This document shows, one piece after another, positions 41,549 through 62,788 of a DNA stretch of 64,000 nt. The translations under genes and the position numbers were made by a program. Origin of the DNA: an uncultured beta proteobacterium (GTDB lineage Bacteria > Pseudomonadota > Gammaproteobacteria > Burkholderiales > Burkholderiaceae_C); assembly GCA_963816315.1 (NCBI GenBank), contig CAWFJZ010000032.1:46030-110029 (forward strand). Direction: 5' to 3'. The stretch's first letter is position 1. The number at the start of each line of letters is the position of its first letter. The notes under the pieces were generated by a model, which was not told the origin of the DNA, did no database searches, and was given only the letters and a program-made list of their open reading frames with translations.

Positions 41549-41641
41549 GGCAAGTTCAGCGAATGCGAGTTGAGAAAGGATAGTTCGCCCATCGGAAGCA
41601 AGGAAACAAGCGCTCCGGGTACGGCCTTCGCGGCCCAATGG

Positions 41642-42109: not shown

Positions 42110-42154
42110 TAGCTAACTCCTTTGAGGGGGTGGTGGGCGGATCACGAAGAAACA

Positions 42155-42728: not shown

Positions 42729-42772
42729 TGACTAACTCCTTTGAGGGATGGTGGGCGGATCACGCAGAAACA

Positions 42773-45733: not shown

Positions 45734-48322
45734 ATGTTCGCTTCATTGAAGAAGAAACTGTTCGGCGGCGCGGCGAAGAGCCAGCCGGACATGTCGGCGC
45801 GCGTTGCCGCCGCACCGCCAACAGAAGCCGAGACCGGCGCCTCGGCGTTCAAGCAGCGCGGCAATGCACTGCGCGAACAGGGCCATCTACAGGAGGCCGT
45901 GCAATGCTATCGCCAAGCTCTGGCAGCAGCGCCCAACGATGTCGGCGCGCTGGTCAATCTGGGCTTTGTGCTCAGCGAGCTCGGGCAGCACGTGGAGGCT
46001 CGCCCTCATCTCGAGAAGGCAATCGGACTCGACCCGAAGCAGGACGATGCCTTGTACATACTAGGCACCATCGAACGCGCCACAGGCAGCGCGCACAAGG
46101 CGATCGAGCGCTTTCGCTCGACACTGGCCCTGCGACCCGATTTCTCGATCTGCCGGCTCGATCTGTGCCGCTTGCTGTTCGAACACGGGTTCTTGCAAGA
46201 GGCCAGGCAAGCCGTCACCGCCGGCATCGCCATCGAACCCGACTCGGCCGACCTGCATTGCTACCTAGGCAATCTGCATCACGAAGCGCGTGAGCTGGAC
46301 AAAGCTGTCGCGTGCTTCCAGACGGCATTGGCACTTCAGCCGAACTACGCACCCGCGTATCAAGGCTTGGCCATGGCGCATTCAAATCTCGGGACGGCCC
46401 TTCAAGCTCAGGGGAAGTTCGACGCTGCCGCAGCGGCTTACCTTCGCGCGTTGGAACTGAGGCCCGATCACGCGCAGGCGCACTGCAGTCTGGCCTCAGT
46501 GCTCCACGCGCAAGGGCGGTTGAACGACGCGATCCAGAGCTATAAGACCGCGCTCTCGCTGCAGCCGGATCTCACCGAAGCTCATGCAGACTTGGGAACC
46601 GTTTTTCACGACAAGGGCGACCTGCCTGCCGCGGTCGAGAGCTATCGAGCTGCGCTCGCGATCGAGCCGGGTTTTGCGCAAGGTCATATCAATCTTGCGT
46701 TGGTGCTGCAGGCCCAGGGCAAGTTCGATGAAGCCGTCAGGAGTTATGAGACGGCGGTTGCGCTCATGCCGGCCAATCCTGAAGCCCACTGCGGCTTGGG
46801 AACTGCATTGCAGGATCAGGGAAAGCAAGCCGCCGCGATAGCCAGCTATCGCATCGCGATTTCCCTGAATCCTGAATACGCTGACGCACACAGCAACCTC
46901 GGGACTCTTCTTCAGGCTCAAGGAAAGCTCGACGCCTCGCTGACGAGTTATCGCACGGCGCTTTCGTTGAAGCCCGACAGCAGCATGGCGCACGGCAACG
47001 TCGGTTCTGTTCTACAGGAAATGGGCGAGAACGACGCGGCGATCGAAAGCCTGCGACGCGCACTCGCGCTCAATCCGGACTACGCGATTGCTCAGTACAC
47101 CTTGCTTTTCACGCTGAACTATCACCCCGACAAGAGCGCGCAGGAGATCTTCGCGGCTTACCGCGAGCACGACGCGCTGGTGGGGGTGCCGCTGCGCAGC
47201 ACCTGGCGCAAGCATGGCAACTCGCGCGATGCGACGCGGCGGCTGAGGGTGGGTTATGTCTCGCCGGACTTTCGCAAACACGCGGTGCGCCATTTCCTCG
47301 AGCCGCTGCTGGCCCACCACGACAAGCGACAGGTCGAGGTGTTCGCCTATGCAGAGCTGACGGTGGAAGACGACATGACAGCACGCTATCGCGGGCTGGT
47401 CGATCACTGGGTGCGCACCGTCGGCCTGAGCGACGAGGCTCTGGCCGAACGCATCCGCGCCGACGGCATCGACATCCTGGTCGATCTGGCGGGACACACG
47501 GCGAAGAACCGGCTCGGAGCCTTCGCGCGCAAGCCGGCGCCGGTGTCGATGTCGTGGCTGGGATTCGGCTACACGACGGGGCTGAGCGCCATCGACTACT
47601 TTCTGACTGATGGCGCCTGCGCTCCCGAAGGCTGTGAGGACTTGTTTGCAGAGCGACCTTGGCGGCTGTCAACGCCGGGCTATGCCTTTCGTCCGGCCGA
47701 AGGCATGGGCCCCGTCAGCAGCCTGCCCGCGCAAGACCGAGGCTTCGTCACCTTTGGCACGTTGACGCGCTCGGTGCGCATCAACCACCGCTCCATCCGG
47801 GTGTGGTCGCAAATACTGCATCGTGTGCCAGGATCGCGATTGGTGGTGGACAGCGGCAACTACCGGGACGAGGGCATGCGCACCACGCTGCAAGACAAGT
47901 TCTCGGCCCATGGCATCGGCCCCGAGCGGCTCGAGCTCGGGTTTCACACACCGCCGTGGGACGTGCTGCGTGGCATGGACATTGGCCTCGACTGCTTTCC
48001 ACACAACTCGGGGACTACCTTGTTCGAGAGCCTGTACATGGGCGTGCCCTACGTCACCCTCGCCGGGCGGCCGAGCGTGGGCCGCCTGGGCAGCTCGATC
48101 TTGCACGGCGTGGGCCACCCGGAGTGGATCGCGCGCAGCGAGGACGAGTACGCCGACATCGCGGTAGCCCTGGCCAGCGATCTGCCGAAGCTGGCTGCGC
48201 TGCGCGCGGGCTTGCGGGCGCAGATGCAGGCCAGCGCGGTGATGGACGAGCCCGGGTTTGCGCGCAAGGCCGAGGCGGCTTACCGCGAGATGTTCTCGCA
48301 CTGGGCCGCAGGCCCGGCCTGA
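45734..48322 (+). CDS. TPR + GT41 glycosyltransferase, paralogue B (862 aa)
   Basis: Start at the internal ATG 45734 (MFASLKKKLFGG). About 480 aa of TPRs plus the GT41-like domain. The last ~370 codons are identical to paralogue D. Confidence 0.85.
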   Translation: MFASLKKKLFGGAAKSQPDMSARVAAAPPTEAETGASAFKQRGNALREQGHLQEAVQCYRQALAAAPNDVGALVNLGFVLSELGQHVEARPHLEKAIGLDPKQDDALYILGTIERATGSAHKAIERFRSTLALRPDFSICRLDLCRLLFEHGFLQEARQAVTAGIAIEPDSADLHCYLGNLHHEARELDKAVACFQTALALQPNYAPAYQGLAMAHSNLGTALQAQGKFDAAAAAYLRALELRPDHAQAHCSLASVLHAQGRLNDAIQSYKTALSLQPDLTEAHADLGTVFHDKGDLPAAVESYRAALAIEPGFAQGHINLALVLQAQGKFDEAVRSYETAVALMPANPEAHCGLGTALQDQGKQAAAIASYRIAISLNPEYADAHSNLGTLLQAQGKLDASLTSYRTALSLKPDSSMAHGNVGSVLQEMGENDAAIESLRRALALNPDYAIAQYTLLFTLNYHPDKSAQEIFAAYREHDALVGVPLRSTWRKHGNSRDATRRLRVGYVSPDFRKHAVRHFLEPLLAHHDKRQVEVFAYAELTVEDDMTARYRGLVDHWVRTVGLSDEALAERIRADGIDILVDLAGHTAKNRLGAFARKPAPVSMSWLGFGYTTGLSAIDYFLTDGACAPEGCEDLFAERPWRLSTPGYAFRPAEGMGPVSSLPAQDRGFVTFGTLTRSVRINHRSIRVWSQILHRVPGSRLVVDSGNYRDEGMRTTLQDKFSAHGIGPERLELGFHTPPWDVLRGMDIGLDCFPHNSGTTLFESLYMGVPYVTLAGRPSVGRLGSSILHGVGHPEWIARSEDEYADIAVALASDLPKLAALRAGLRAQMQASAVMDEPGFARKAEAAYREMFSHWAAGPA

Positions 48323-48376
48323 GTTCGGGGCTTGCCGGCATGTTCACGTCGTTGAAGAAGAAGCTGTTCGGGAACG
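47218..48376 (+). repeat. identical tract 1, copy a (3' end of B + spacer + first 12 codons of C)
   Basis: Matches 52040-53198 at an offset of 4822 nt. Spot-checked lines are identical, and so are the six-frame ORF translations (47669..48301 = 52491..53123, 47823..48167 = 52645..52989, 48049..48267 = 52871..53089). Confidence 0.85.
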
Positions 48377-50244
48377 GGACCACGCGGCTTCAAACCGCCG
48401 AACTCTTAGAGCAAGGCCAAGCAGCCGAAGCGCGGGGCGAGGTCGATGAAGCAGAGCGGCTTTATCGGCGTGCGGTTGCGGCCGACGATGCGTCAGCAGA
48501 TGCACATATGAATCTGGGTAACGTCTTGAACGCGAAAGGTCATGGGTTGGCCGCGGTTGAGTCGTACGAGCGGGCTATCTCGATCAACGCCAAGCACGCT
48601 TCCGCACACTACAACTTGGGCCTCGCGCTGCTTTACGCGGGCGACAACGCGCGAGTTGTACAACTCTTTCGCACAGCAGTTCGGCTTCGTGAGGCGTTCC
48701 CGCAGGCTTGGGTCGGTTTGGCGCTGGCACTGGAAGCTCAAGGCGATTTCGAAGGGGCCATTGAAAGCTACCGCCAAGCGGTGCGTGTGAAGCCTGACTT
48801 TGTCGAGGCGCACAGAAACCTCGGGTTGATCTGCCTCCAGCGAGGTCAGGTCAAGGCAGCGGACGAGAGCTATCGCAGGGCGCTGCTGGCCAGTCCTGGA
48901 GATGCCGAGTCATACCTCGGCCTCGCTAGCGTCCTGAAGGAACGAGGCGACATCGATGCGGCGATCGAGGCGTGTTGTAAGGCGCTGGATGTTGATCCGA
49001 ACCACATTGCCGGGCGGAGCAACTTGCTGTTTGCTCTCAACTACCACCCCGACAAAAGCGCGGAGGAGATCTTTGCGGCTTATGTCGAATACGACGAGCG
49101 CTTTGGTCTGCCGCAACGCCGTAGCTGGCGCGCTCACGACAACGATCCGAACACGGCTCGGCGATTGAAGGTTGGTTATGTCTCACCAGACTTCAATCAT
49201 CACCCGGTGCGCCACTTTCTCGAGCCTCTGCTCGCGAACCATGACAAGACCGCGGTGGAGATCTACGCATACGCCGAACTGACACAGGAGGACGCCGTCA
49301 CTTCGCGCTACAGGGCCATCGTTGACCATTGGATTCCAAGCAGGGGCTTGACCGACGCTGCGTTGGCCGCGCGCATTCGTGACGACAAGATCGATGTCCT
49401 GGTGGACCTGGCAGGGCACACCATGAACAGTCGTCTCGGTGCGTTTGCGATCAAACCGGCACCGGTATCGATGTCGTGGCTCGGCTACGGCTACACAACA
49501 GGGCTGAGCGCCATCGACTACTTCCTTGCTGACAGCGCAAGTGCACCGCAGGGCGCCGACGGCCTGTTTGCCGAACGCCCCTGGCGCCTTGCAACCCCTG
49601 CCTATGCCTACCGGCCGGCCGACGGGATGGGCCCGGTCGGCACGTTGCCGTCGGCTCGGCGCGGCCATGTCACGTTCGGCACATTGACGCGGGCCGTGCG
49701 AATCAATCATCGATCGATTCGCGTCTGGTCGGAGATACTCAGGCGGGTGAAGGGCGCTCGGTTGGTCGTGAACAGCAGAAGTTACCTGGATGCCGACATG
49801 CGGTCGAGGCTTGCTGAGAGGTTCGCCGAGAACGGCATCGCAGCGGACCGGCTTGAGCTTGGTTTTTCCTCCCCGCCGTGGGACGTGTTGCGCGATATGG
49901 ACATCGGCCTCGACTGCTTTCCGCACAACTCGGGCACGACACTGTTCGAATCGCTGTACATGGGTGTGCCCTACGTCACGTTGGCCGGGCGGCCCAGCGT
50001 GGGCCGCCTGGGCAGCTCGATCTTGCACGGCGTGGGCCACCCGGAGTGGATCGCGCGCAGCGAGGACGAGTACGCCGACATCGCGGTGGCCCTGGCCAGC
50101 GATCTGCCGAAGCTGGCCGCGCTGCGCGCGGGCTTGCGGGCGCAGATGCAGGCCAGCGCGGTGATGGACGAGCCCGCTTTCGCACGCAAGCTGGAGGCGG
50201 CTTACCGCGAGATGTTCTCCCGCTGGGCCGCGGGCCCGGCCTGA
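48340..50244 (+). CDS. TPR + GT41 glycosyltransferase, paralogue C (634 aa)
   Basis: Start ATG 48340 (MFTSLKKKLFGN). Short, divergent TPR region (about 250 aa) plus a GT41-like domain (NLLFALNYHPDKSA...). Confidence 0.85.
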   Translation: MFTSLKKKLFGNGTTRLQTAELLEQGQAAEARGEVDEAERLYRRAVAADDASADAHMNLGNVLNAKGHGLAAVESYERAISINAKHASAHYNLGLALLYAGDNARVVQLFRTAVRLREAFPQAWVGLALALEAQGDFEGAIESYRQAVRVKPDFVEAHRNLGLICLQRGQVKAADESYRRALLASPGDAESYLGLASVLKERGDIDAAIEACCKALDVDPNHIAGRSNLLFALNYHPDKSAEEIFAAYVEYDERFGLPQRRSWRAHDNDPNTARRLKVGYVSPDFNHHPVRHFLEPLLANHDKTAVEIYAYAELTQEDAVTSRYRAIVDHWIPSRGLTDAALAARIRDDKIDVLVDLAGHTMNSRLGAFAIKPAPVSMSWLGYGYTTGLSAIDYFLADSASAPQGADGLFAERPWRLATPAYAYRPADGMGPVGTLPSARRGHVTFGTLTRAVRINHRSIRVWSEILRRVKGARLVVNSRSYLDADMRSRLAERFAENGIAADRLELGFSSPPWDVLRDMDIGLDCFPHNSGTTLFESLYMGVPYVTLAGRPSVGRLGSSILHGVGHPEWIARSEDEYADIAVALASDLPKLAALRAGLRAQMQASAVMDEPAFARKLEAAYREMFSRWAAGPA

Positions 50245-50261
50245 GTTCGGGGCTTGCAGGC

Positions 50262-53144
50262 ATGTTCGCGTCGTTCAAGAACAAGCTGTTCGGCGGCGCG
50301 GCGAAGAGCAAGCCGGACACGTCGGCACGTGTTGCCGCCGCACCGCCAACCGAAGCCAAAGCCGGCGCCTCGGAGTTCAAGAGGCGCGGCAACGCGCTGC
50401 GCGAGCAGGGCCATCCACAGGAGGCGGTGCAGTGCTATCGGCAGGCCCTCGCACTGGCGCCCAACGATGTCGGCGCGCTGGTCAACCTGGGTTTCGTGCT
50501 GAGCCAGCTCGAGCAGTTCGTGGAGGCTCGCTCGCACCTCGAGAAGGCGGCTCTGCTCGACCCGAAGCAGGACGATGCCTTGTACATCCTGGGCACCATC
50601 GAGCGCGCCACGGGTAACCCGGACAAGGCGATCGAGCGCTTCCGCTCGACGCTGGCCCTGAAGCCCGACTTCTCGATCTGTAGGCTCGACTTGTGTCGCC
50701 TGCTGTTCGAGCGCGGGTTCGTTCACGAGGCCAAGAACGTCGTCGCAGCCGGCATCGCCGTCGAGCCAAGCTCGGCCGACCTGCACCACTACCTAGGCAA
50801 TCTGCATTACGAGGCCCGCGAGCTGGATGCTGCCGTCAAGAGTTTCGAGCGCGTAACGGCGCTTCAACCCGACTTGGCGCCAGCGCATCAAAGCTTGGCC
50901 ATGGCGCTTCAGTTGTCCGGGAAGTTGGACGCCGCAATCGACAGCTATCGCCGTGTGATCGCTTTGGTACCGGACTCTGCTGATCTTCATTCGAATCTCG
51001 GGACGGCTCTTCAGGCTCAGGGGAAGCTCGACGCGGCGGCAGCGGCGTACCGTCGGGCATTGGAGTTGAGGCCGGAATATGCGCAGGCGCATTGCGGTCT
51101 GGCCTCAGTGCTCTACGCGCAAGGACGTTTTGATGCGGCGGAGGAAAGCTATCTCAAGGCGCTCGAATCGAATCCGAGTTTCATCGAAGCGCTTGCCGGT
51201 CTGTCGGCGACGCTTCAAGCTCAAGGCCGATTGAACGAGGCTGTTTCCCGGCTCGAACACGCTGTGCTCCTCCAGCCAAATGAGCCTTCCAGGCACTCGC
51301 TGCTGGCAGCGGCTTTTCACGCGCAGGGTCGGTTGAACGACGCAATCAAGAGCTACAAGACCGCGCTTCTACTAAAACGGGATCTCACGGAAGCCCATGC
51401 CAACTTGGGAACCGTTTTTCACCACAACGGCGACCTGCTTGCTGCGATCGAGAGTTATCGAGCTGCGCTCGCGATCGACCCGAATTTTGCGCAAGTTCAT
51501 ATCAATCTTGCCTCGGTGCTGCAGGCCCAAGGCAAAGTCGGCGAGGCCATCAGGAGTTACGAGAAGGCAGTTGCGCTCGTGCCAACCAATGCTGAGGCCC
51601 ACTGCGGCTTGGGAACCGCATTGCAGGATCAGGGACAACAATCTGCCGCGATGGCCAGCTATCGCATCGCGATTTCCCTGAACCCTGGCTACGCCGACGC
51701 ACACAGCAACCTCGGAACCATTCTTCAGCAACAAGGAAAGCTCAATGCCGCGTTGACGAGCTACCGCAACGCGCTTGCGTTGAAGCCCGACAGCGGCTTG
51801 GCGCACGGCAATGTCGGTTCTGTTCTACAGGAAATGGGCGAGCACGACGCGGCGATCGAAAGCCTGCGACACACACTTGCTCTCAAGCCGGACTACCCCA
51901 TCGCCCAGTACGCCTTGCTCTACCTGCTTTTCACGCTGAACTATCACCCTGACAAGAGCGCGCAGGAGATCTTCGTGGCCTACCGCGAGCACGACGAGCG
52001 GGTGGGGGTGCCGCTGCGCAGCACCTGGCGCAAGCATGCCAACTCGCGCGATGCGACGCGGCGGCTGAGGGTGGGTTATGTCTCGCCGGACTTTCGCAAA
52101 CACGCGGTGCGCCATTTCCTCGAGCCGCTGCTGGCCCACCACGACAAGCGACAGGTCGAGGTGTTCGCCTATGCAGAGCTGACGGTGGAAGACGACATGA
52201 CAGCACGCTATCGCGGGCTGGTCGATCACTGGGTGCGCACCGTCGGCCTGAGCGACGAGGCTCTGGCCGAACGCATCCGCGCCGACGGCATCGACATCCT
52301 GGTCGATCTGGCGGGACACACGGCGAAGAACCGGCTCGGAGCCTTCGCGCGCAAGCCGGCGCCGGTGTCGATGTCGTGGCTGGGATTCGGCTACACGACG
52401 GGGCTGAGCGCCATCGACTACTTTCTGACTGATGGCGCCTGCGCTCCCGAAGGCTGTGAGGACTTGTTTGCAGAGCGACCTTGGCGGCTGTCAACGCCGG
52501 GCTATGCCTTTCGTCCGGCCGAAGGCATGGGCCCCGTCAGCAGCCTGCCCGCGCAAGACCGAGGCTTCGTCACCTTTGGCACGTTGACGCGCTCGGTGCG
52601 CATCAACCACCGCTCCATCCGGGTGTGGTCGCAAATACTGCATCGTGTGCCAGGATCGCGATTGGTGGTGGACAGCGGCAACTACCGGGACGAGGGCATG
52701 CGCACCACGCTGCAAGACAAGTTCTCGGCCCATGGCATCGGCCCCGAGCGGCTCGAGCTCGGGTTTCACACACCGCCGTGGGACGTGCTGCGTGGCATGG
52801 ACATTGGCCTCGACTGCTTTCCACACAACTCGGGGACTACCTTGTTCGAGAGCCTGTACATGGGCGTGCCCTACGTCACCCTCGCCGGGCGGCCGAGCGT
52901 GGGCCGCCTGGGCAGCTCGATCTTGCACGGCGTGGGCCACCCGGAGTGGATCGCGCGCAGCGAGGACGAGTACGCCGACATCGCGGTAGCCCTGGCCAGC
53001 GATCTGCCGAAGCTGGCTGCGCTGCGCGCGGGCTTGCGGGCGCAGATGCAGGCCAGCGCGGTGATGGACGAGCCCGGGTTTGCGCGCAAGGCCGAGGCGG
53101 CTTACCGCGAGATGTTCTCGCACTGGGCCGCAGGCCCGGCCTGA
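50262..53144 (+). CDS. TPR + GT41 glycosyltransferase, paralogue D (960 aa)
   Basis: Start ATG 50262 (MFASFKNKLFGG). Longest TPR region (about 580 aa) plus the GT41-like domain. Confidence 0.85.
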   Translation: MFASFKNKLFGGAAKSKPDTSARVAAAPPTEAKAGASEFKRRGNALREQGHPQEAVQCYRQALALAPNDVGALVNLGFVLSQLEQFVEARSHLEKAALLDPKQDDALYILGTIERATGNPDKAIERFRSTLALKPDFSICRLDLCRLLFERGFVHEAKNVVAAGIAVEPSSADLHHYLGNLHYEARELDAAVKSFERVTALQPDLAPAHQSLAMALQLSGKLDAAIDSYRRVIALVPDSADLHSNLGTALQAQGKLDAAAAAYRRALELRPEYAQAHCGLASVLYAQGRFDAAEESYLKALESNPSFIEALAGLSATLQAQGRLNEAVSRLEHAVLLQPNEPSRHSLLAAAFHAQGRLNDAIKSYKTALLLKRDLTEAHANLGTVFHHNGDLLAAIESYRAALAIDPNFAQVHINLASVLQAQGKVGEAIRSYEKAVALVPTNAEAHCGLGTALQDQGQQSAAMASYRIAISLNPGYADAHSNLGTILQQQGKLNAALTSYRNALALKPDSGLAHGNVGSVLQEMGEHDAAIESLRHTLALKPDYPIAQYALLYLLFTLNYHPDKSAQEIFVAYREHDERVGVPLRSTWRKHANSRDATRRLRVGYVSPDFRKHAVRHFLEPLLAHHDKRQVEVFAYAELTVEDDMTARYRGLVDHWVRTVGLSDEALAERIRADGIDILVDLAGHTAKNRLGAFARKPAPVSMSWLGFGYTTGLSAIDYFLTDGACAPEGCEDLFAERPWRLSTPGYAFRPAEGMGPVSSLPAQDRGFVTFGTLTRSVRINHRSIRVWSQILHRVPGSRLVVDSGNYRDEGMRTTLQDKFSAHGIGPERLELGFHTPPWDVLRGMDIGLDCFPHNSGTTLFESLYMGVPYVTLAGRPSVGRLGSSILHGVGHPEWIARSEDEYADIAVALASDLPKLAALRAGLRAQMQASAVMDEPGFARKAEAAYREMFSHWAAGPA

Positions 53145-53198
53145 GTTCGGGGCTTGCCGGCATGTTCACGTCGTTGAAGAAGAAGCTGTTCGGGAACG
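52040..53198 (+). repeat. identical tract 1, copy b (3' end of D + spacer + first 12 codons of E)
   Basis: See copy a. Mismatches bound the tract at 47217/52039 (g/c) and 48377/53199 (g/c). Confidence 0.85.
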
Positions 53199-55744
53199 CG
53201 GCGAGCAAGCAAGGGGAGTCGGCGCGCGGTGCCGCCGTATCGAGCGAAGCCGAGGCCAACGCCTCGGAATTCACGCAGCGCGGCAACGCGCTCCGCGAAC
53301 AGGGCCGCCTACAGGAAGCTGCACAGTGCTATCGGCAGGCCCTGGCAGCATCGCCCTACGACATCGGCGCGCTGGTCAACCTGGGCTTTGTGCTGAGCGA
53401 GCTCGAACAATACGTGGAGGCTCGCTCGCCTCTCCAGAAGGCAGCGTTGCTCGACCCGAAGCAAGACGATGCCCTGTACATCCTGGGCACCATCGAGCGC
53501 GCTACCGGCAACCAGGACAAGGCAATCGAGCACTTTGGCGCGACGCTGGCCCTGCGACCCGACTTCTCGCTCTGCCGGCTCGATCTGTGCCGTCTGCTGT
53601 TTGAGCGCGGGTTCGTGCAAGAGGCCAGAGAAGTCGTCAACACCGGCATAGCCATCGACCCCAACTCGGCCGACCTGCACTACTACCTAGGCAATCTACA
53701 TAACGAAGCGCGCGAGCTGGATGAGGCCGTCGCGTGCTTCCAGAAGGCGTTGGCACTTCAGCCGAACTACGCGCCCGCGTATCAAGGCTTGGCCATGGCG
53801 CATTCGAATCTCGGAACAGCCCTTCAAGCTCAGGGGAAGTTCGATGCCGCCGCGGCGGCCTACCGCCGTGCGTTGGAACTGAGGCCCGATCATGCGCAGG
53901 CGCATTGCGGTCTGGCCTCCGTGTCTCACTCGCAAGGGCGTTTGAACGACGCTATACAGAGCTACAAAACCGCGCTTTCGTTGCAGCCGGATTTCACCGT
54001 GGCCTGGGTCAACCTGGGAAATGTCTTTCAAGATCTGGGCGCCCTGCCGAACGCTATCGACAGCTATCAGGCTGCAATTGCGCTGGAGCCAACGATTGCC
54101 GAAGCGCATAACAACCTGGCCACCGCGCTACAAGCACAAGGCAAGCTCAGCGATGCGGTCACGAGCTACGAAACGGCGATCGAACTCAAACCGAACTACG
54201 CCGAGGCTCACTGCAATTTGGGGACGGTGTTGGCCGCGCTGGGCGATAACCCTGCAGCCATCACGAGGTATCGACTGGCGATATCCATGGCCCCCGACTA
54301 TGCCGATGCTCATAGCAATCTTGGCAATCTTCTTCAAAGCTGTGGTCAGCTAGGCGCTGCACACGAGAGTTACACCAAAGCTCTTTCGTTGACGCCTGAC
54401 AGCGCCACTGCGCACCGCAACCTGGGAGGCGTATTTCAGGAAATGGGCGAGCACGACGCGGCGATCGAAAGCTTGCAACATGCACTCACGCTCAAACCGG
54501 ACTGCGCCATCGCGCAGTTCATGTTGCTCTTCACGCTGAACTATCACCCCGACAAGAGCGCGCAAGAGATCTTTGCGGCCTATCGCGACTACGACCAGCG
54601 GGTGGGCCTGCCGCTGCGCAGCAGCTGGCGCGAGCATGGCAACTCGCGCGACTCATCCAAGCGCCTGAAGGTGGGCTATGTCTCGCCCGATTTTCGCCAG
54701 CACGCGGTGCGCCACTTCCTCGAGCCGCTGCTGGCCCACCACGACAAGCGACAGGTCGAGGTGTTCGCCTATGCAGAGCTGTCGATGGAAGACGCCATGA
54801 CGGCCCGCTACCGCGGCTTCGCCGACCACTGGGTGCCCACCGTCGGCCTGACCGACGAGATGCTGGCCGAACGCATCCGCGCCGACGAGATCGACATCCT
54901 TATTGATCTGGCGGGGCAGACGGCGAAGAACCGGCTGGGGGTCTTTGCGCGCAAGCCTGCGCCGGTGTCGATGTCGTGGCTGGGCTTTGGCTACACAACG
55001 GGGCTGAGCGCCATCGACTACATGCTCACCGACAGCGCAAGCACCCCCGAAGGCAGCGAAGACTTGTTTGCCGAGCAACCTTGGCGGCTAACGACGCCAG
55101 GCTATGCCTATCGTCCGGCCAATGGCATGGGCCATGTCAGCAGCTTGCCGGCGCAAGACCGGGGCTTCATCACCTTCGGCACGTTGACGCGCTCGGTGCG
55201 CATCAACCACCGCTCTATCCGAGTGTGGTCGCAAATACTGCATCGCTTGCCAGGGGCGCGACTGGTGGTGGACAGCAGCAACTACCGGGACGAAAGCATG
55301 CGCAACGCGCTGCTGGACAAGTTCTCGGCCCATGGCATCGGTCCCGAGCGGCTGGAGCTTGGTTTTCATTCACCGCCGTGGGATGTGCTGCGCGGCATGG
55401 ACATCGGGCTGGACTGCTTTCCGCACAACTCGGGCACGACGCTGTTCGAGTCGCTCTACATGGGTGTGCCCTACGTCACCCTCGCCGGGCGGCCGAGCGT
55501 GGGCCGCCTGGGCAGCTCGATCCTGCAGGGCGTGGGCCACCCCGAGTGGATCGCCGACAGCGAGGACGAGTACGTTGAGTTGGCCGTAGCGCTGGCCAGC
55601 GATCTGCCCAAGCTGGCTGCGCTGCGCGCGGGCTTGCGCGCGCAGATGCAGGCCAGCGCGGTGATGGACGAGCCCGCCTTCGCACGCAAGCTGGAGACGG
55701 CTTATCGCGAGATGTTCTCGCGCTGGGCCGAAGGCTCGGCCTGA
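53162..55744 (+). CDS. TPR + GT41 glycosyltransferase, paralogue E (860 aa)
   Basis: Start ATG 53162 (MFTSLKKKLFGN). About 480 aa of TPRs plus the GT41-like domain. Confidence 0.85.
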   Translation: MFTSLKKKLFGNAASKQGESARGAAVSSEAEANASEFTQRGNALREQGRLQEAAQCYRQALAASPYDIGALVNLGFVLSELEQYVEARSPLQKAALLDPKQDDALYILGTIERATGNQDKAIEHFGATLALRPDFSLCRLDLCRLLFERGFVQEAREVVNTGIAIDPNSADLHYYLGNLHNEARELDEAVACFQKALALQPNYAPAYQGLAMAHSNLGTALQAQGKFDAAAAAYRRALELRPDHAQAHCGLASVSHSQGRLNDAIQSYKTALSLQPDFTVAWVNLGNVFQDLGALPNAIDSYQAAIALEPTIAEAHNNLATALQAQGKLSDAVTSYETAIELKPNYAEAHCNLGTVLAALGDNPAAITRYRLAISMAPDYADAHSNLGNLLQSCGQLGAAHESYTKALSLTPDSATAHRNLGGVFQEMGEHDAAIESLQHALTLKPDCAIAQFMLLFTLNYHPDKSAQEIFAAYRDYDQRVGLPLRSSWREHGNSRDSSKRLKVGYVSPDFRQHAVRHFLEPLLAHHDKRQVEVFAYAELSMEDAMTARYRGFADHWVPTVGLTDEMLAERIRADEIDILIDLAGQTAKNRLGVFARKPAPVSMSWLGFGYTTGLSAIDYMLTDSASTPEGSEDLFAEQPWRLTTPGYAYRPANGMGHVSSLPAQDRGFITFGTLTRSVRINHRSIRVWSQILHRLPGARLVVDSSNYRDESMRNALLDKFSAHGIGPERLELGFHSPPWDVLRGMDIGLDCFPHNSGTTLFESLYMGVPYVTLAGRPSVGRLGSSILQGVGHPEWIADSEDEYVELAVALASDLPKLAALRAGLRAQMQASAVMDEPAFARKLETAYREMFSRWAEGSA

Positions 55745-56317
55745 GTTTCGGGGCTCACAGGCATGTTCACGTCGTTGAAGAACAAGCTGTTCGGCAGCAC
55801 AGCAAAGCAGCCGCAACCGCCCGAACCCCAGGCCGACGCCGCGGCGGTCAAGAAACGCGGCAACGCACTGCGCGAACAAGGCCATCTACAGGAGGCCGTG
55901 CAGTGCTATCGCCGGGCCCTGGCAGCAGCGCCCAACGATGTCGGCGCGCTGGTTAACTTGGGATTTGTGCTGAGCGAGCTCAAGCAGCATGCGGAGGCTC
56001 GCTCGCATCTCGAAAAGGCCATTCAGCTCGACCCGAAACAGGACGATGCCTTGTACATCCTTGGCACCATCGAGCGCGCCACCGGCAATCCGGACCAGGC
56101 GATCGAGCGCTTTGGCGCAACGCTGGATCTCAAGCCCGACTTCTCGATGTGCCGGCTCGAGCTGTGCCGCCTGCTGTTCGAGCGCGGTCGTGCTGACGAA
56201 GCCAAGCAGGTCGTCCAAGCCGGTATCGCCATCGACCCCGCCTCGGCCGATCTGCACTACTACCTGGGCAATCTGCATCACGAAGCTCGTGAGCTGGATG
56301 CGGCCATCTCGTGCTTC
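55334..56317 (+). repeat. identical tract 2, copy a (3' end of E + spacer + first 185 codons of F)
   Basis: Matches 57278-58261 at an offset of 1944 nt. ORF translations are identical (55370..55885 = 57314..57829, 55471..55689 = 57415..57633), and F and G proteins are identical through ...AISCF. Confidence 0.85.
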
Positions 56318-57688
56318 GAGCGGGCGTTGTCCATCAGTCCGGACTACGCCGAGGTGTATGGCAACCTGGCCAATTCGTTGCAAGAGCGGGGCAACTTGGA
56401 CCGTGCAGTCGATTGCGCGCGAAGGGCGCTGCAGCTGCAGCCGGGACTCGATGCAGCTCAGAACAACCTTCTGTTCGCGTTGAACTACCACCCCGACAAG
56501 AGCGCGCAGGAGATTTTTGCGGCCTACCGCGAGTACGACGAGCGCGTGGGGCTGCCACTGCGCAACACTTGGCGCGAGCATGCCAACTCACGCGACGCGT
56601 CCAAACGCCTGAAGGTGGGCTATGTCTCGCCGGACTTTCGCCAGCACCCGGTTCGTCATTTTTTGGAGCCACTGCTGGCCCACCACGACAAGCGTTTGGT
56701 CGAAGTGTTCGCCTACGCAGAACTGTTGCTGGAAGACGCAACAACATTGCGTTATCGCACCTACGTGGATCACTGGATCGCCACTGCCGGCCTAAGCGAC
56801 GATGCGCTTGCCGACCGGGTTCGCTCTGACGGCATCGACATCCTGCTCGACCTGGCCGGACACACTGGCAAGAATCGATTGGGCGTCTTCGCGCGCAAGC
56901 CTGCACCGGTGTCGATGTCGTGGTTGGGCTTCGGATACACGACGGGCCTGACTGCCATCGACTACATGCTCACCGATGGCGCGAGTGCTCCCGAAGGTAG
57001 CGAAGATTTGTTTGCCGAGCAGCCCTGGCGGCTGGCAACGCCGGGCTATGCCTATCGTCAGGCCGAAGGCATGGGCGCAGTGAGTGCTCTGCCGGCGCAA
57101 GACAGAGGCTTCGTCACCTTCGGCACCTTGACGCGCTCGGTGCGCATCAACCACCGCACCGTGCGGGTGTGGTCGCAAGTACTGCATCGAGTGCCAAGGG
57201 CGCGACTGGTGGTGGACAGCATGAACTATCGAAACCCATCGGTGCGAGACGAGCTGACCCGGAAGTTCGCCGAGAACGGCATCGGTCCCGAGCGGCTGGA
57301 GCTTGGTTTTCATTCACCGCCGTGGGATGTGCTGCGCGGCATGGACATCGGGCTGGACTGCTTTCCGCACAACTCGGGCACGACGCTGTTCGAGTCGCTC
57401 TACATGGGTGTGCCCTACGTCACCCTCGCCGGGCGGCCGAGCGTGGGCCGCCTGGGCAGCTCGATCCTGCAGGGCGTGGGCCACCCCGAGTGGATCGCCG
57501 ACAGCGAGGACGAGTACGTTGAGTTGGCCGTAGCGCTGGCCAGCGATCTGCCCAAGCTGGCTGCGCTGCGCGCGGGCTTGCGCGCGCAGATGCAGGCCAG
57601 CGCGGTGATGGACGAGCCCGCCTTCGCACGCAAGCTGGAGACGGCTTATCGCGAGATGTTCTCGCGCTGGGCCGAAGGCTCGGCCTGA
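55763..57688 (+). CDS. TPR + GT41 glycosyltransferase, paralogue F (641 aa)
   Basis: MFTSLKNKLFGS. About 260 aa of TPRs plus the GT41-like domain. The 5' 555 nt are identical to G and the 3' 411 nt are identical to E. Confidence 0.85.
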   Translation: MFTSLKNKLFGSTAKQPQPPEPQADAAAVKKRGNALREQGHLQEAVQCYRRALAAAPNDVGALVNLGFVLSELKQHAEARSHLEKAIQLDPKQDDALYILGTIERATGNPDQAIERFGATLDLKPDFSMCRLELCRLLFERGRADEAKQVVQAGIAIDPASADLHYYLGNLHHEARELDAAISCFERALSISPDYAEVYGNLANSLQERGNLDRAVDCARRALQLQPGLDAAQNNLLFALNYHPDKSAQEIFAAYREYDERVGLPLRNTWREHANSRDASKRLKVGYVSPDFRQHPVRHFLEPLLAHHDKRLVEVFAYAELLLEDATTLRYRTYVDHWIATAGLSDDALADRVRSDGIDILLDLAGHTGKNRLGVFARKPAPVSMSWLGFGYTTGLTAIDYMLTDGASAPEGSEDLFAEQPWRLATPGYAYRQAEGMGAVSALPAQDRGFVTFGTLTRSVRINHRTVRVWSQVLHRVPRARLVVDSMNYRNPSVRDELTRKFAENGIGPERLELGFHSPPWDVLRGMDIGLDCFPHNSGTTLFESLYMGVPYVTLAGRPSVGRLGSSILQGVGHPEWIADSEDEYVELAVALASDLPKLAALRAGLRAQMQASAVMDEPAFARKLETAYREMFSRWAEGSA

Positions 57689-58261
57689 GTTTCGGGGCTC
57701 ACAGGCATGTTCACGTCGTTGAAGAACAAGCTGTTCGGCAGCACAGCAAAGCAGCCGCAACCGCCCGAACCCCAGGCCGACGCCGCGGCGGTCAAGAAAC
57801 GCGGCAACGCACTGCGCGAACAAGGCCATCTACAGGAGGCCGTGCAGTGCTATCGCCGGGCCCTGGCAGCAGCGCCCAACGATGTCGGCGCGCTGGTTAA
57901 CTTGGGATTTGTGCTGAGCGAGCTCAAGCAGCATGCGGAGGCTCGCTCGCATCTCGAAAAGGCCATTCAGCTCGACCCGAAACAGGACGATGCCTTGTAC
58001 ATCCTTGGCACCATCGAGCGCGCCACCGGCAATCCGGACCAGGCGATCGAGCGCTTTGGCGCAACGCTGGATCTCAAGCCCGACTTCTCGATGTGCCGGC
58101 TCGAGCTGTGCCGCCTGCTGTTCGAGCGCGGTCGTGCTGACGAAGCCAAGCAGGTCGTCCAAGCCGGTATCGCCATCGACCCCGCCTCGGCCGATCTGCA
58201 CTACTACCTGGGCAATCTGCATCACGAAGCTCGTGAGCTGGATGCGGCCATCTCGTGCTTC
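57278..58261 (+). repeat. identical tract 2, copy b (3' end of F + spacer + first 185 codons of G)
   Basis: See copy a. The tract is bounded by t/c at 55333/57277 and g/c at 56318/58262. Confidence 0.85.
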
Positions 58262-59653
58262 CAGAAAGCGTTGGCTCTTCGGCCGGACTATCTGGAGGTG
58301 CACAACAATCTTGGCAACAGCTATCTCGCACAAGGCGAACTCGAAGCTTCGCTCGAGTCTTATCAGAAGGTGATTTTGCTCGACCCGCGCTTCCCGAATG
58401 CCTACGGCACGATGCTGTTCCCGCTGAACTACCACCCAGATCTCGGCGCGGACGAAATATTCGCGGCATATCGGGCCTACGACGCCCATGTCGGGCTACC
58501 GCTGCGCTCTGCTTGGCGGGCGCACGACAACGATCGCAGCATCACGCGGCGTCTCCGGGTGGGCTATGTCTCGGCCGACTTCTATGAGCACGCGGTGCGG
58601 TTTTTCCTGGAACCCTTGCTGGCAAACCACGACAAAGCCACCGTTGAAATATTTGCCTATGCCGAGCTGGACAAAGAAGACTCGACGACGGCAATTTACA
58701 GACGATACGTGGACCACTGGACGCCGACCATGGACCTATCGGATGACGCGCTCGCTGAGCGCATTCGGTTCGACAGGATCGACATCCTCGTCGACCTCGC
58801 GGGGCACACGGCGAAGAACCGGCTGGGTGTGTTTGCACGAAAGCCAGCTCCGGTTTCACTCTCATGGCTCGGCTACGGATATACAACCGGACTCGGTGCC
58901 ATTGACTACTTTTTGACTGACAGCATCAGCGCACCACCAGGCAGCGAGAGCTTGTTCGCTGAAAAGCCTTGGTGCCTGTCAACTCCCGCATGCTCCTACC
59001 GACCGGCGGTGCAAATGGGCAATGTCAGCAGTTTGCCGGCACAGAGCAACGGTGTGGTCACCTTCGGCACGCTGACGCGCGCAATACGGATCAATCACCG
59101 CTCCATTCGTGTTTGGGCCGAGATTCTGAAGCGAGTACGCGGTTCCCGACTGGTGGTGAACAGCACCAGCTTTCGCGAGCCGGCGATGCGTACCAGTCTG
59201 GCCGAGAAGTTTGCGGTAAACGGAATCGAAAGGGAGCGTCTGCAGATCGGCTATGACACCCCGCCGTGGGATGTGCTGCGCGCTATGGACATCGGGCTCG
59301 ATTGCTTTCCGCACAACTCGGGGACCACGCTGTTCGAAAGCTTGTACATGGGCGTGCCCTTCGTCACTCTGGCCGGCCGACCCAGCGTGGGCCGACTGGG
59401 AAGTTCGGTTTTGCACGGCGCTGGGCACCCGGAGTGGATTGCCCACAGCGAGGACGAGTACATCGACAAGGCGGTCGCACTGGCCAGCGACCTGCCAAAG
59501 CTGGCCGCGTTGCGCGCGGGGCTGCGTGCGCAGGTCGAGGCCAGCCCGATCAGGGACGAGGCCGGGTTCGCCCGCAAGGTGGAATTGGCCTACCGCGAGA
59601 TGTTCGCAATCTGGGCAAATGGAGCAAGCGACGCTCCGGCGGCCAGAACTTGA
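57707..59653 (+). CDS. TPR + GT41 glycosyltransferase, paralogue G (648 aa)
   Basis: MFTSLKNKLFGS. About 265 aa of TPRs plus the most divergent GT41-like domain in the array (MLFPLNYHPDLGA...FPHNSGTTLFESLYMGVPFVTLAG). Confidence 0.85.
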   Translation: MFTSLKNKLFGSTAKQPQPPEPQADAAAVKKRGNALREQGHLQEAVQCYRRALAAAPNDVGALVNLGFVLSELKQHAEARSHLEKAIQLDPKQDDALYILGTIERATGNPDQAIERFGATLDLKPDFSMCRLELCRLLFERGRADEAKQVVQAGIAIDPASADLHYYLGNLHHEARELDAAISCFQKALALRPDYLEVHNNLGNSYLAQGELEASLESYQKVILLDPRFPNAYGTMLFPLNYHPDLGADEIFAAYRAYDAHVGLPLRSAWRAHDNDRSITRRLRVGYVSADFYEHAVRFFLEPLLANHDKATVEIFAYAELDKEDSTTAIYRRYVDHWTPTMDLSDDALAERIRFDRIDILVDLAGHTAKNRLGVFARKPAPVSLSWLGYGYTTGLGAIDYFLTDSISAPPGSESLFAEKPWCLSTPACSYRPAVQMGNVSSLPAQSNGVVTFGTLTRAIRINHRSIRVWAEILKRVRGSRLVVNSTSFREPAMRTSLAEKFAVNGIERERLQIGYDTPPWDVLRAMDIGLDCFPHNSGTTLFESLYMGVPFVTLAGRPSVGRLGSSVLHGAGHPEWIAHSEDEYIDKAVALASDLPKLAALRAGLRAQVEASPIRDEAGFARKVELAYREMFAIWANGASDAPAART

Positions 59654-59656
59654 ACG

Positions 59657-60385
59657 TCAGTTCACGCGCCTGAGGTACCCGCCCGGCGCAACGGTAATCA
59701 AAAGCTTGCTCTCGATATCGACGTTGATCTCGAAATCACGCGACTCGCGCAGAAACTGCTGCACGGCCGTTTTCGGGTTGTTGCCCGGGCCCCATGCACG
59801 GTCGCCGACCAGCCTCGCCGGCATGTCTTCGATCAGCGTGTCCATCACGACGCAGTAACCGCCCTGGCACACCAGCGGGGCATAGGCTCGCAGCTCGGCC
59901 AGCACGTGATCGTGGGTGTGGTTGGAGTCGAGCACCACAACTGCACGCTTGCCATTCGCCAAAGCGCGCACCTGATCAATTGTTGCCGCGTCGATGGACG
60001 AACCCTGCAGCAAGCGCACGCGGCGGCTCATCGGATGCGCCTCGATGGCTTCGCGGTTGTGCGGGCGGATGTCGATATCGACGCCGAGCACCTCGCCATG
60101 ACCGATCAGTTCCAGCAGTGACGCGTAGTAGAGGATCGACCCACCGTGGGCGACGCCGGCTTCGATCACCAGATCGGGCTTCACCGACCACAAGATCTCC
60201 TGCATGGCCATCATGTCCTGCGGGAACTGGATGATGGGTCGCCCCATCCAGCTGAAGTTGTACGCGTACTTGTGCGGCGACACTTCACGCACCCAGACGC
60301 GCGACAGGGCTTGCAGATCACGGTCTTGCTTCAAGCCCTCGGTGTTGCGCCGAACTTCATCTCGGAATTCTTCATGCGGGTTCAT
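59657..60385 (-). CDS. CmcI / cephalosporin-hydroxylase-family SAM-dependent (sugar O-)methyltransferase
   Basis: YAYNFSWMGRPIIQFPQDMMAMQEILWSVKPDLVIEAGVAHGGS...VVLDSNHTHDHVL is typical of the CmcI/rhamnosyl O-methyltransferase family. Start at the internal ATG 60385. Confidence 0.8.
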   Translation of the reverse strand: MNPHEEFRDEVRRNTEGLKQDRDLQALSRVWVREVSPHKYAYNFSWMGRPIIQFPQDMMAMQEILWSVKPDLVIEAGVAHGGSILYYASLLELIGHGEVLGVDIDIRPHNREAIEAHPMSRRVRLLQGSSIDAATIDQVRALANGKRAVVVLDSNHTHDHVLAELRAYAPLVCQGGYCVVMDTLIEDMPARLVGDRAWGPGNNPKTAVQQFLRESRDFEINVDIESKLLITVAPGGYLRRVN

Positions 60386-61094
60386 TGACAAATTGCCTCC
60401 AGTCGATCGATCGGGACATGATGTGCTGAATGCCGGCCCGACCGCAATGGGCCACCAGGTCGAGCCCGGTGACGTAGGGCGTGAAAGCGCCGTGCGGCTG
60501 CGGGTAAGGGTCACAACGGTACTTCATGTATTCCACGGCAATACCGGACTCTTCGAAGAGCTTGTGGTTCAGGTAGTTGCGCGCGCCGTGCCCTGTGACA
60601 TAGATATTGCCGCCCACGCGCTGGACGACCTCCAACACGCGTTCGCTGCTCGTGCCGGGAACTCCCAGCTCGCCGACATCGATGAAGCGCGTGTCGCGGT
60701 CTAGGCCGAAGTAGTGCGCCAGGGCCAAAGTCGAGGCCCGCGCCAGTGAACCCAAGTGTGAGTGAGGCGCGTTGAAAACCTCTTCCGCCAGACGCAGCGC
60801 GTCGGTGGCGAATGGGCTGCCGCCGAAGCTGGCCCTGAGCAAGTCGAGGTGGCGATTGCGCCATTTCGCAGCCGGTGCAAGCCGCACAGCATCGATGCGT
60901 TGGCCGAGGTGAAGTCCCTCGAGCGGCAGCGTCATCCAGCGCATGCCGTCCTGGGTCTTAACTTGCACTCTGTTGACAAAACTGCCCTTGGAGAACTGAA
61001 CATCGTCGTAGTGCACGAAAACATCTGCGAGGCGGATCTGCTCCAGCATGCCGACCCACGGAAACAGCATCGATTGAGAAATGACGACGCGCAT
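60372..61094 (-). CDS. WbqC-family protein
   Basis: MRVVISQSMLFPWVGMLEQIRLADVFVHYDDVQFSKGSFVNRVQVKT... matches the WbqC-like N-terminal pattern seen in O-antigen/aminosugar clusters. Confidence 0.7.
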   Translation of the reverse strand: MRVVISQSMLFPWVGMLEQIRLADVFVHYDDVQFSKGSFVNRVQVKTQDGMRWMTLPLEGLHLGQRIDAVRLAPAAKWRNRHLDLLRASFGGSPFATDALRLAEEVFNAPHSHLGSLARASTLALAHYFGLDRDTRFIDVGELGVPGTSSERVLEVVQRVGGNIYVTGHGARNYLNHKLFEESGIAVEYMKYRCDPYPQPHGAFTPYVTGLDLVAHCGRAGIQHIMSRSIDWRQFVNEPA

Positions 61095-61098
61095 GCCT

Positions 61099-61617
61099 TC
61101 AGCCGTGCTCGAGAAAGAGCTCCATCAACAGCACGTCCTGCCAATTGCCGTCGATGAAGATGTGCTTGCGGAGATGGCCGCACGGTTGAAAACCCAGGCG
61201 CCGGTAGCAGCGGATAGCACGTTCGTTGTCTGCGCGAACGCGCAAGTTGAGCTTGCGCGTTCTCCGTACATCACCAAGATAAGGCAGCGCCAGCGTGATG
61301 GCCTCGGTGCCCGCGCCGCGACCTTGGGCCGCACGGGACAGGCAGATTCCGAGATCGGCCAAGCCATCGATCGGGTCGAGCCCCGTAAACTGAATAAAGC
61401 CGAGCGCCTCATCCAAAGGTCGGTCGGCGATGACGAACAGAACACTGTCGGTGCCGTTAGAGCGACGCTCTAGCCAATCTCGCACCTGCTCCAAGTTGCT
61501 GCCTTGCGCACGCGCCAGCAACTGCGCCTGCAACGCAACGTCATTCCTCAGCACCTGAAGCCTCGGTAGATCGCGCTCCTGCCACGCGCGCAGGCGAATC
61601 GAGGCACCCTCGATCAT
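61099..61617 (-). CDS. GNAT family N-acetyltransferase
   Basis: IRLRAWQERDLPRL...CLSRAAQGRGAGTEAITLAL...NERAIRCYRRLGF. Start ATG 61617 overlaps the upstream stop (ATGA). Confidence 0.8.
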   Translation of the reverse strand: MIEGASIRLRAWQERDLPRLQVLRNDVALQAQLLARAQGSNLEQVRDWLERRSNGTDSVLFVIADRPLDEALGFIQFTGLDPIDGLADLGICLSRAAQGRGAGTEAITLALPYLGDVRRTRKLNLRVRADNERAIRCYRRLGFQPCGHLRKHIFIDGNWQDVLLMELFLEHG

Positions 61618-62768: not shown

Positions 62769-62788
62769 TTGAATGTCTCGCTCAGAGG

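Follow-up and report, generated by a model that had tools for sequence, protein, structure and literature searches.

The 64-kb stretch of DNA analysed here (the window, to which all coordinates refer unless a contig is named) belongs to contig 32 of a metagenome-assembled genome (MAG) of an uncultured beta proteobacterium, which comprises 5.18 Mb in 48 contigs and is 82.6% complete. It carries seven co-oriented tandem genes, here called paralogues A to G, each of which codes for tetratricopeptide repeats (TPRs) followed by a glycosyltransferase (GT) domain of family GT41. According to the open reading frame (ORF) map, these genes are separated by spacers of 16-18 nt. The Pfam profile Glyco_transf_41 (PF13844) matches 7/7 proteins with 137-157 bits (cut-off 25), and many TPR models match as well. 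A to G were the only GT41 genes detected in the source MAG. The array is operon-like, its first cistron being a small gene which we call ORF98, and consists of seven cytoplasmic SPINDLY/OGT-type (GT41) glycosyltransferases inside a putative type IV pilin glycosylation island. The bounds given in a preliminary description of this region (45734-59653) proved to be correct, being the ATG of B and the stop codon of G. The array has the following members:

43035..43331, plus strand: ORF98, 98 aa; conserved protein predicted to form four helices, heads the array operon
43357..45717, plus strand: paralogue A, 786 aa; leader MLSWLRR, 10 TPRs (aa 35-374), GT41 domain aa 381-786
45734..48322, plus strand: paralogue B, 862 aa; N-module aa 1-205, 12 TPRs (aa 36-450), 7-aa remnant aa 206-212, GT41 domain aa 457-862
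48340..50244, plus strand: paralogue C, 634 aa; B-type leader, a different set of 6 TPRs (aa 19-222), GT41 domain aa 229-634
50262..53144, plus strand: paralogue D, 960 aa; N-module aa 1-205, 15 TPRs (aa 36-545), GT41 domain aa 555-960
53162..55744, plus strand: paralogue E, 860 aa; N-module aa 1-203, 12 TPRs (aa 34-448), 7-aa remnant as in B, GT41 domain aa 455-860
55763..57688, plus strand: paralogue F, 641 aa; N-module aa 1-195, 6 TPRs (aa 26-229), GT41 domain aa 236-641
57707..59653, plus strand: paralogue G, 648 aa; N-module 97% identical to that of F, 6 TPRs, most diverged GT41 domain (70-74% aa identity)

Repeat architecture of the encoded proteins

The proteins are built in the order short N-terminal peptide, disordered linker, TPR solenoid, cap helix, connector, and GT-B domain of ~406 aa. 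Every 34-residue window was scored against a consensus TPR. In the resulting TPR map, 34-aa TPRs follow one another in register and without a gap all the way from the leader to the catalytic domain of each protein, many of them with Asn at position 6. The total number of TPRs is 6 in C, F, and G, 10 in A, 12 in B and E, and 15 in D.

Paralogues B, D, E, F, and G have an N-module in common. It consists of the leader MF[AT]S[LF]K[KN]KLFG and about 170 aa, that is, of the leader, the disordered linker, and TPR1-5, and shows 71-80% aa identity (97% between F and G). The corresponding region of A is diverged (40-43% identity), and C has the leader only. Between the N-module and the cap helix there is one TPR in F and G, compared to seven in B and E and ten in D.

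The preliminary description had proposed a cassette of three parts: a conserved N-terminal module in these five paralogues, a TPR-like central block of variable length, and a conserved catalytic domain. This anatomy is real according to the gene map and the TPR map, the N-terminal module is present at the identities given above, and the central blocks are genuine TPRs rather than linkers, as seen from Pfam, the TPR map, and a structure model of B. The string QPNYAPAYQGLAMAHSNLGTALQAQGKFDAAAAAY, claimed to be common to B and E, was found in both by a string check. Two points had to be revised. The N-module is not a separate module but represents TPR1-5 of one continuous TPR array, and the ~70 aa assigned to the region between N-module and GT domain in F and G correspond to a single TPR of 34 aa before the cap helix.

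The view that D equals B plus ~100 aa of extra TPRs fits the length difference of 98 aa. This is, however, the sum of 27 + 68 + 3 aa, of which only the 68 aa are whole TPRs. The 68-aa indel comprises exactly two TPRs, and the unit at the junction in B is a hybrid of D-TPR8 and D-TPR10, fused at an xAQGR motif. The 27-aa deletion, which is out of register, is common to B and E and has left a 7-aa remnant; the expectation that indels come in units of 34 aa thus holds for most of them but not for this one. An AlphaFold (AF2) model of B, computed from an alignment of 78 sequences, has a predicted local distance difference test score (pLDDT) of 91.8 and shows 12 helix pairs. The remnant is absorbed in a lengthened helix (residues 206-225, 20 residues), and the solenoid is followed by the cap helix, the connector, and the GT-B domain.

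For a wider comparison we used the 120 closest homologues of the array proteins. A motif in TPR4 was found in 47 of them, usually at a near-fixed distance from the N-terminus. The distance from this motif to the GT domain could be measured in 42 of these, 40 of which agree modulo 34, with spacings that correspond to 4, 6, 9, 10, 11, or 12 repeats. This indicates that the repeat number varies by whole units throughout the group that bears the N-module, not just in the window.

The leader is conserved in B to G (in B at 45734-45766), and MF.SLK-type starts occur in ~25/120 homologues. MFxSLKKKLFG resembles the membrane-targeting sequence of MinD, but a membrane anchor is not supported, since the hydrophobic moment of the leader (0.25-0.32) was matched by about half of the shuffled sequences. 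Single frames of 1404-1883 aa with two TPR + GT41 units were encountered in other genomes and contigs (G041:C5:45089-48646, G043:C56:15941-19315, L036 11055-13401); they look like fusions of neighbouring array members.

Recombination within the array

Two pairs of perfect repeats span gene boundaries within the array:

47218..48376, plus strand: perfect 1159-bp tract, copy 1; B from aa 495 to the stop codon, spacer, C aa 1-13
52040..53198, plus strand: perfect 1159-bp tract, copy 2; D from aa 593 to the stop codon, spacer, E aa 1-13
55334..56317, plus strand: perfect 984-bp tract, copy 1; E from aa 725 to the stop codon, spacer, F aa 1-185
57278..58261, plus strand: perfect 984-bp tract, copy 2; F from aa 506 to the stop codon, spacer, G aa 1-185

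The fact that these repeats are perfect in a background of 63-90% identity indicates that the mosaic pattern is not due to chance. Synonymous divergence (dS) points in the same direction, as it varies up to 40-fold by region within one gene pair. For A and B, dS is 1.77 in TPR1-5 and 0.23-0.26 in the GT domain; more generally, the TPR region of A differs from those of B, D, E, F, and G with dS values of 1.3-1.8, compared to 0.23-0.26 for its GT domain against B and D. The reverse pattern is seen for F and G (0.045 in TPR1-5, 1.8-2.3 in the last TPR and the N-lobe of the GT domain). In the pair of C and B, most of the GT domain has a dS of 1.5-1.7, compared to 0.34 in the last 129 codons, and it is only this 3' end of C that resembles B and D. 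On the protein level, the GT domain had been described as near-identical. This applies to B and D (99%), while other pairs show 70-91% identity overall and 78-100% over the last ~127 aa; the N-terminal lobes of the GT domain in C and G stand apart with 67-71% aa identity. When the solenoids are compared unit by unit, B has its higher identity with E in TPR4-6 and with D from TPR8 on.

The trees computed from the TPR1-5 block and from the catalytic block are discordant. The TPRs of A form a lineage of their own, while its catalytic block groups with those of B, D, E, and F. The TPRs of C pair with a gene from another MAG (L049_13468; 100/100), and the catalytic block of G pairs with the last gene of related arrays (P0002/P0003/L011c; 100/100). 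In L012 and L058, genes of the same genome group together at their 3' catalytic ends, and this is also seen in L049, with weaker support (80/73). Differences in dS between regions, conflicting trees, and the perfect tracts together establish that the cassettes are recombinational mosaics, which bears out the mosaic relationship of the blocks suggested in the preliminary description.

Two processes are involved. Unequal recombination between TPR units gains or loses whole repeats, and gene conversion transfers tracts which cover the 3' catalytic end, the 16-18-nt spacer, and the 5' end of the next gene. As a consequence, the TPR and catalytic blocks of one gene differ in age: the catalytic end evolves in concert while TPR identities persist. 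Adjacent GT41 genes at ~11039 and 13541 of contig L058 (CAWBTF010000014.1) have catalytic blocks which are identical over 276 aa and TPRs which are very different; the same pattern of concerted evolution is thus seen independently of the window. We rejected the extra repeats of D as recent internal duplicates, since the highest unit-to-unit nucleotide identity is 65%. The shorter form found in B and E is thus best read as a deletion by inter-repeat recombination.

The pairwise ratio of nonsynonymous to synonymous divergence (omega) is 0.1-0.65, mostly 0.1-0.5, in all regions of useful length, and reaches about 1 only in segments of 25-30 codons. This means that purifying selection acts on every part of each of the seven genes. 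Positive selection on the TPRs was considered as well and is not supported by these pairwise values.

With a MAG, it has to be considered whether the array is partly an artefact, its copy number or its perfect tracts having arisen by mis-assembly or by polishing that homogenised paralogous repeats. The fragmented and incomplete state of the source genome speaks for this, as do the frameshifts in the array of the same-genus MAG G004. The window, however, has seven intact ORFs across 16.3 kb with omega values in the range of purifying selection, and there are unique segments in every one of the seven genes. Moreover, A-, C-, F-, and G-types each have separate close relatives in other metagenomes, arrays of 3-4 GT41 genes exist in other genomes, and polishing is able to erase differences only between copies that are already very similar. 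We thus consider such an artefact highly improbable, although the identical tracts may look more perfect than they are as a result of polishing.

Catalytic pocket, ORF98, and the surrounding island

The best relative of solved structure by sequence is SPINDLY (SPY) from Arabidopsis, with an E-value of 1e-119 for F as query compared to 1e-90 for OGT. The alignment is contiguous (aa 175-640 of F to SPY 376-848), without an intervening domain. The top fold matches of the B model in Foldseek are also SPY structures (8DTF/7Y4I; E 1e-52, template modelling (TM) score 0.71-0.80), followed by human OGT, the OGT of T. terrenum (TtOGT), and XcOGT. The profile match, the layout of TPR solenoid and GT-B domain, and the SPY/OGT-like fold all agree with membership in GT41.

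The pocket departs from that of the characterised enzymes. The equivalents of SPY D491, H495, and T748 are retained. The phosphate-binding Lys that is essential in this family (SPY K665, human OGT K842, K445 in Ogt of Synechococcus elongatus, SeOgt) is replaced by Arg in 7/7 array genes and in 117/117 of the aligned sequences among the 120 closest homologues. The gatekeeper position (SPY Y744, OGT C917) is occupied by His in 7/7 and in 118/118 aligned homologues of the same set, the equivalent of S496 is Ala or Pro, and that of N661 is Thr. In SPY, K665 is essential, Y744 acts as a donor-size gatekeeper that fits fucose, and S496 orients the acceptor (PMC9715652). The proteins are hence closest to SPY and have no intervening domain but lack its Tyr744 and Ser496. 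Other GT41 proteins linked to ORF98 keep the Lys in 69/77 cases and have Tyr, Phe, or His as gatekeeper.

Because these SPY residues are replaced, the donor is probably not GDP-fucose. The combination of Arg and His in the seven genes and their closest homologues sets them apart as a distinct Arg/His subfamily of GT41, for which the names O-fucosyl- or O-GlcNAc-transferase would be inappropriate. The analogy to OGT drawn in the preliminary description is justified in so far as the proteins are OGT-related, but the best match is SPY, and both the defining Lys and the gatekeeper are replaced. The block DIGLDCFPHNSGTTLFESLYMGVP and the motif FGTLTR..RINHR are conserved in all seven. That the pocket residues and the surrounding blocks are the same throughout the array supports one shared donor. 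The notion of one catalytic scaffold thus stands with respect to the invariant donor-pocket residues and the homogenised 3' ends; the scaffold is not uniform, since the GT N-lobes of C and G are diverged.

The product of ORF98, the gene before A, has the motif LNxYKKAxLGNAFKW. All of its 730 homologues are listed as 'hypothetical', and Pfam and NCBIfam gave no match. Its AF2 model (pLDDT 85.5) consists of four helices, and a comparison with folds in the PDB gave no match below E 0.1. We analysed 75 ORF98 loci from Burkholderiales, Nitrosomonadales, Rhodocyclales, and Methylococcales, including loci of named Polaromonas, Rhizobacter, and Undibacterium strains in culture; neighbourhoods were counted within 10 kb, and many loci are cut by contig ends. 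GT41 genes are present in 44/75 loci (1-4 copies), a pilin gene in 49/75, and a PglL-like gene in 23/75, while ORF98 lies immediately before a GT41 gene in 37/75. When 41 relatives were sampled, ORF98 and GT41 genes were adjacent in 5/6 genomes that have both. Arrays of 3-4 GT41 genes occur elsewhere, and the seven genes in the window are the largest array in this sample. As ORF98 is usually located between pilin and GT41 genes, we regard it as a candidate partner of the glycosyltransferases.

About 19-23 of the ORF98 loci also carry genes for a TfpW-like GT-C membrane protein with C-terminal TPRs and a GtrB-like protein similar to GT2 polyprenyl-phosphate glycosyltransferases, both recognised from sequence only (examples are L056 15382-17310 and L028 4057-4968). 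Several alternative pilin-glycosylation systems thus seem to occupy this niche.

The following genes flank the array within the window:

40763..41638, minus strand: pilin accessory gene of the TfpX/TfpZ family (NCBIfam NF041437, 205.5 bits, cut-off 200)
41684..42112, minus strand: type IVa pilin gene 1, 141 aa (Pfam Pilin and N_methyl)
42303..42731, minus strand: type IVa pilin gene 2, 141 aa (Pfam), divergent from ORF98
59657..64000, minus strand: nucleotide-sugar tailoring cluster, convergent with the array (CmcI-type O-methyltransferase, WbqC, GNAT, S-adenosylmethionine (SAM) methyltransferase, PhyH)

The pilin genes lie ~0.6 kb upstream of A in divergent orientation, so that genes for TPR + GT41 proteins are found next to a major pilin gene. 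The four differences between the two pilins (E/L, A/E, A/G, S/A) fall within 9 residues that follow directly on the N-terminal helix. The sugar cluster continues past the window (L013 = G000:C32:110030-126000) with genes for DegT, a C-methyltransferase, an enzyme of the 3,5-epimerase family, a 4,6-dehydratase, and a nucleotidyltransferase, and then pglL follows. The cluster comprises ten genes, and the sugar genes adjacent to the array are of the 6-deoxyhexose type. The island as a whole has the order metallo-beta-lactamase-fold gene (+), DUF2919 (+), tfpX/tfpZ (-), two pilin genes (-), ORF98 (+), A to G (+), ten-gene sugar cluster (-), gene for a PglL-type O-oligosaccharyltransferase (+), moaC (-).

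The metagenomic contigs L011 and L012 have the same gene order with three GT41 genes each. In these syntenic contigs, ORF98 is 60-68% identical, and the counterpart of the tfpX/tfpZ gene is listed as PF27166 FimB. A gene for a TylF-type O-methyltransferase and a 193-aa gene are inserted between the first and the second GT41 gene of L011 (5862-7370), which links sugar methylation directly to the array. Within the genus, MAG G004 has three GT41 genes, and most of the 24 genomes sampled do not have any.

Possible functions of the array

The likeliest function, for which our analysis suggests about an even chance, is that of a pilin-directed battery for cytoplasmic protein glycosylation which uses the sugar made by the neighbouring cluster. 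All seven enzymes would use the same or a closely similar nucleotide sugar, probably a methylated, N-acylated 6-deoxy-amino sugar from the convergent cluster, and would attach it to Ser/Thr residues of an acceptor protein bound inside the TPR lumen. Which acceptor or site is reached may depend on how many TPRs there are and on which ones. The pilin encoded beside the array would be the likeliest acceptor, because of the analogy to cyanobacterial Ogt/OgtA and because genes for pilin, ORF98, and GT41 proteins are repeatedly found linked. Glycans on pilin shield the cell from phages that are specific for pili (bioRxiv 10.1101/150227), and such phages would supply a selective reason for cassette shuffling.

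The cyanobacterial precedent concerns Ogt from S. elongatus (Synpcc7942_0051) and OgtA from Nostoc punctiforme. Ogt is a TPR + GT41 protein without secretion signal and is encoded next to pilA in 77/201 cyanobacterial genomes; in S. elongatus it is needed, via its catalytic Lys, for PilA glycosylation and normal piliation, and OgtA is needed for PilA accumulation in Nostoc (PMC9306852). The array proteins resemble these in their domain composition and in being encoded adjacent to pilin genes, and a hypothetical gene is found between pilA and ogt there as well. A direct comparison of this gene with ORF98 was not made, and among the 120 matches listed for ORF98 there is no named cyanobacterial one. 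In contrast to the array, SeOgt is encoded by a single gene, has the canonical catalytic Lys, and has UDP-GlcNAc as its proposed donor; a tandem array, a series of TPR numbers, and an adjacent deoxy-amino-sugar cluster have not been reported for the cyanobacterial systems. Compared to SPY, the array proteins have the same sequence of N-terminal peptide, TPR solenoid, connector, and GT-B domain without the insert of metazoan OGT. They differ by having 6-15 TPRs where SPY has a fixed number of 11, and their genes are bacterial, arranged in tandem, and pilin-linked.

A number of points weigh against pilin as the target of an active cytoplasmic battery. In the species studied, the globular part of pilin is exported co-translationally, so that a cytoplasmic enzyme may have little access to it. 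With pglL, the island includes another, complete route to glycosylated pilin. Since the essential Lys of SPY and OGT is Arg here, activity has to be assumed; the exchange is conservative and invariant, which makes activity plausible. The requirement of Ogt for pilin glycosylation is based on genetic evidence from cyanobacteria only, and even there the effect of Ogt on PilA may be indirect. The state of the MAG, mentioned above, belongs here as well. Finally, the pattern of TPR conservation does not single out the lumen. There is no clear signal of lumen-specific conservation or variation: in the TPRs next to the catalytic domain, which in SPY make the contacts to the acceptor, entropy is 1.74 at concave positions and 1.88 at others. 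It is the distal TPR1-5, common to five paralogues and a wider clade of homologues, that are the most conserved ones. This fits a common docking or regulatory module plus a variable spacer as well as it fits diversified recognition.

The solenoids may accordingly be read as spacers or rulers. TPR1-5 and the N-terminal peptide would then be a common module for docking, dimerisation, or autoinhibition, and the number of TPRs would set the distance and rotation relative to the catalytic site. Possible partners would be ORF98, the membrane, or another protomer, and the paralogues would differ in their reach along one acceptor rather than in their partner. Consistent with this, the leader and TPR1-5 are common to five paralogues (71-97% aa identity). 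In 44 non-redundant homologues with the TPR4 motif, TPR1-5 carry family-specific motifs and vary slightly less (entropy 1.46-1.70) than the two TPRs next to the GT domain (1.79-1.88). The near-fixed position of the TPR4 motif, the quantisation of the GT spacing by 34 aa, and the frequent position of ORF98 directly before GT41 would also be expected. However, A and C do not have the N-module and are nevertheless kept in the array under purifying selection, the middle TPRs are constrained (omega 0.18-0.5) beyond what a passive spacer needs, and a membrane-anchor helix in the leader is unsupported, its hydrophobic moment being no higher than in shuffles. We consider this reading rather unlikely.

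The presence of pglL allows a further explanation, in which the GT41 proteins build a glycan. On the cytoplasmic side, they would add sugar to an acceptor that is lipid-linked or a polysaccharide, and PglL would move the glycan to periplasmic pilin, or it would become part of another surface glycan. This would avoid the topological problem of pilin access. It would agree with pglL closing the island and with its recurrence in 20/44 GT41-bearing loci, and no other glycosyltransferase for the products of the sugar cluster was found among the scanned island ORFs. Neither was an initiating phosphoglycosyltransferase or a flippase found among these ORFs, and 24/44 GT41-bearing loci do not have a PglL-like gene within 10 kb, for example those of Polaromonas (L050-L055). 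The characterised GT41 enzymes (SPY, OGT, NGT) act on proteins (PMC9715652), and in SPY and OGT a long TPR solenoid with Asn at position 6 serves to bind peptides. For the assembly of a hetero-oligosaccharide, a set of seven enzymes that do not differ in their pocket would be odd. Glycan building is thus unlikely in our view. The PglL/TfpO and TfpW systems share with the array the niche beside pilA and tfp accessory genes, and a PglL homologue is part of the island. They differ from it in being membrane proteins which act in the periplasm with lipid-linked donors; the array proteins are soluble and, by homology, would use nucleotide-sugar donors.

The link to pilin may also be incidental. In this case, the enzymes would act on different proteins of the cytoplasm, for example on regulatory targets or on flagellins awaiting export. 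The hundreds of substrates of SPY and OGT can be counted in favour of this. In Caulobacter, the N-terminal TPR domain of FlmG binds flagellin in the cytoplasm before export, and the C-terminal GT-B domain transfers a pseudaminyl sugar; TPR glycosyltransferases of this type hence act on flagellins in the cytoplasm (PMC7591256). The array proteins have the same modular logic of acceptor binding by TPRs and transfer by a GT-B domain. FlmG differs in being encoded by a single gene, in its flagellin acceptor, and in being described as GT-B-like only, with GT41 membership unstated (PMC7591256). Two flagellin genes in tandem are present in the source genome, where no Maf homologue could be detected. 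They lie on contig 33, away from the array on contig 32, and the sugar genes beside the array are of the 6-deoxyhexose type, so that linkage to flagellin or nonulosonic-acid genes, as in a FlmG-like system, was not found. The flagellin route was rejected because of the location of the flagellin genes and the missing maf gene. Moreover, the linkage to pilin and ORF98 recurs in many loci of several orders, and the genetic precedent is pilin. An incidental link therefore appears very unlikely.

Returning to pilin-directed glycosylation, a more extended version can be tentatively put forward, which we would regard as doubtful in its entirety. Betaproteobacteria may have a cytoplasmic glycosylation route for pilin or a pilus-associated protein, consisting of SPINDLY-like batteries with an Arg/His pocket together with ORF98. 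With one pocket and solenoids of 6-15 repeats, such batteries would hit different sites, and reshuffling of the cassettes would diversify the glycan coat of the pilus, for example against pilus-specific phages. If the pilin link is true, cytoplasmic pilin glycosylation would be widespread and relevant to pilus function and phage resistance.

How enzymes of the OGT/SPY type choose their substrates is an open question, and the bacterial members are almost uncharacterised. The array can be seen as a natural experiment in this respect: the pocket residues examined are the same in seven enzymes, the distal TPR module is common to five, and the TPR number varies by whole repeats with breakpoints clean enough for the design of domain swaps. 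In addition, the association of pilin and GT41 genes known from cyanobacteria is now seen in many Betaproteobacteria as well, with ORF98 as a hitherto undescribed candidate partner protein and with a GT41 subfamily that has Arg throughout in place of the canonical Lys.

The base composition of the window changes in the part that contains the island. Its GC content is 0.61-0.65 at 40000-64000 and 0.65-0.72 in the preceding 40 kb, which is consistent with a variable or acquired region. Farther upstream, at 35574-37817, ORFs for TerC and a Ser/Thr kinase have partial Pfam domain matches only, which may reflect a local assembly error in the MAG.

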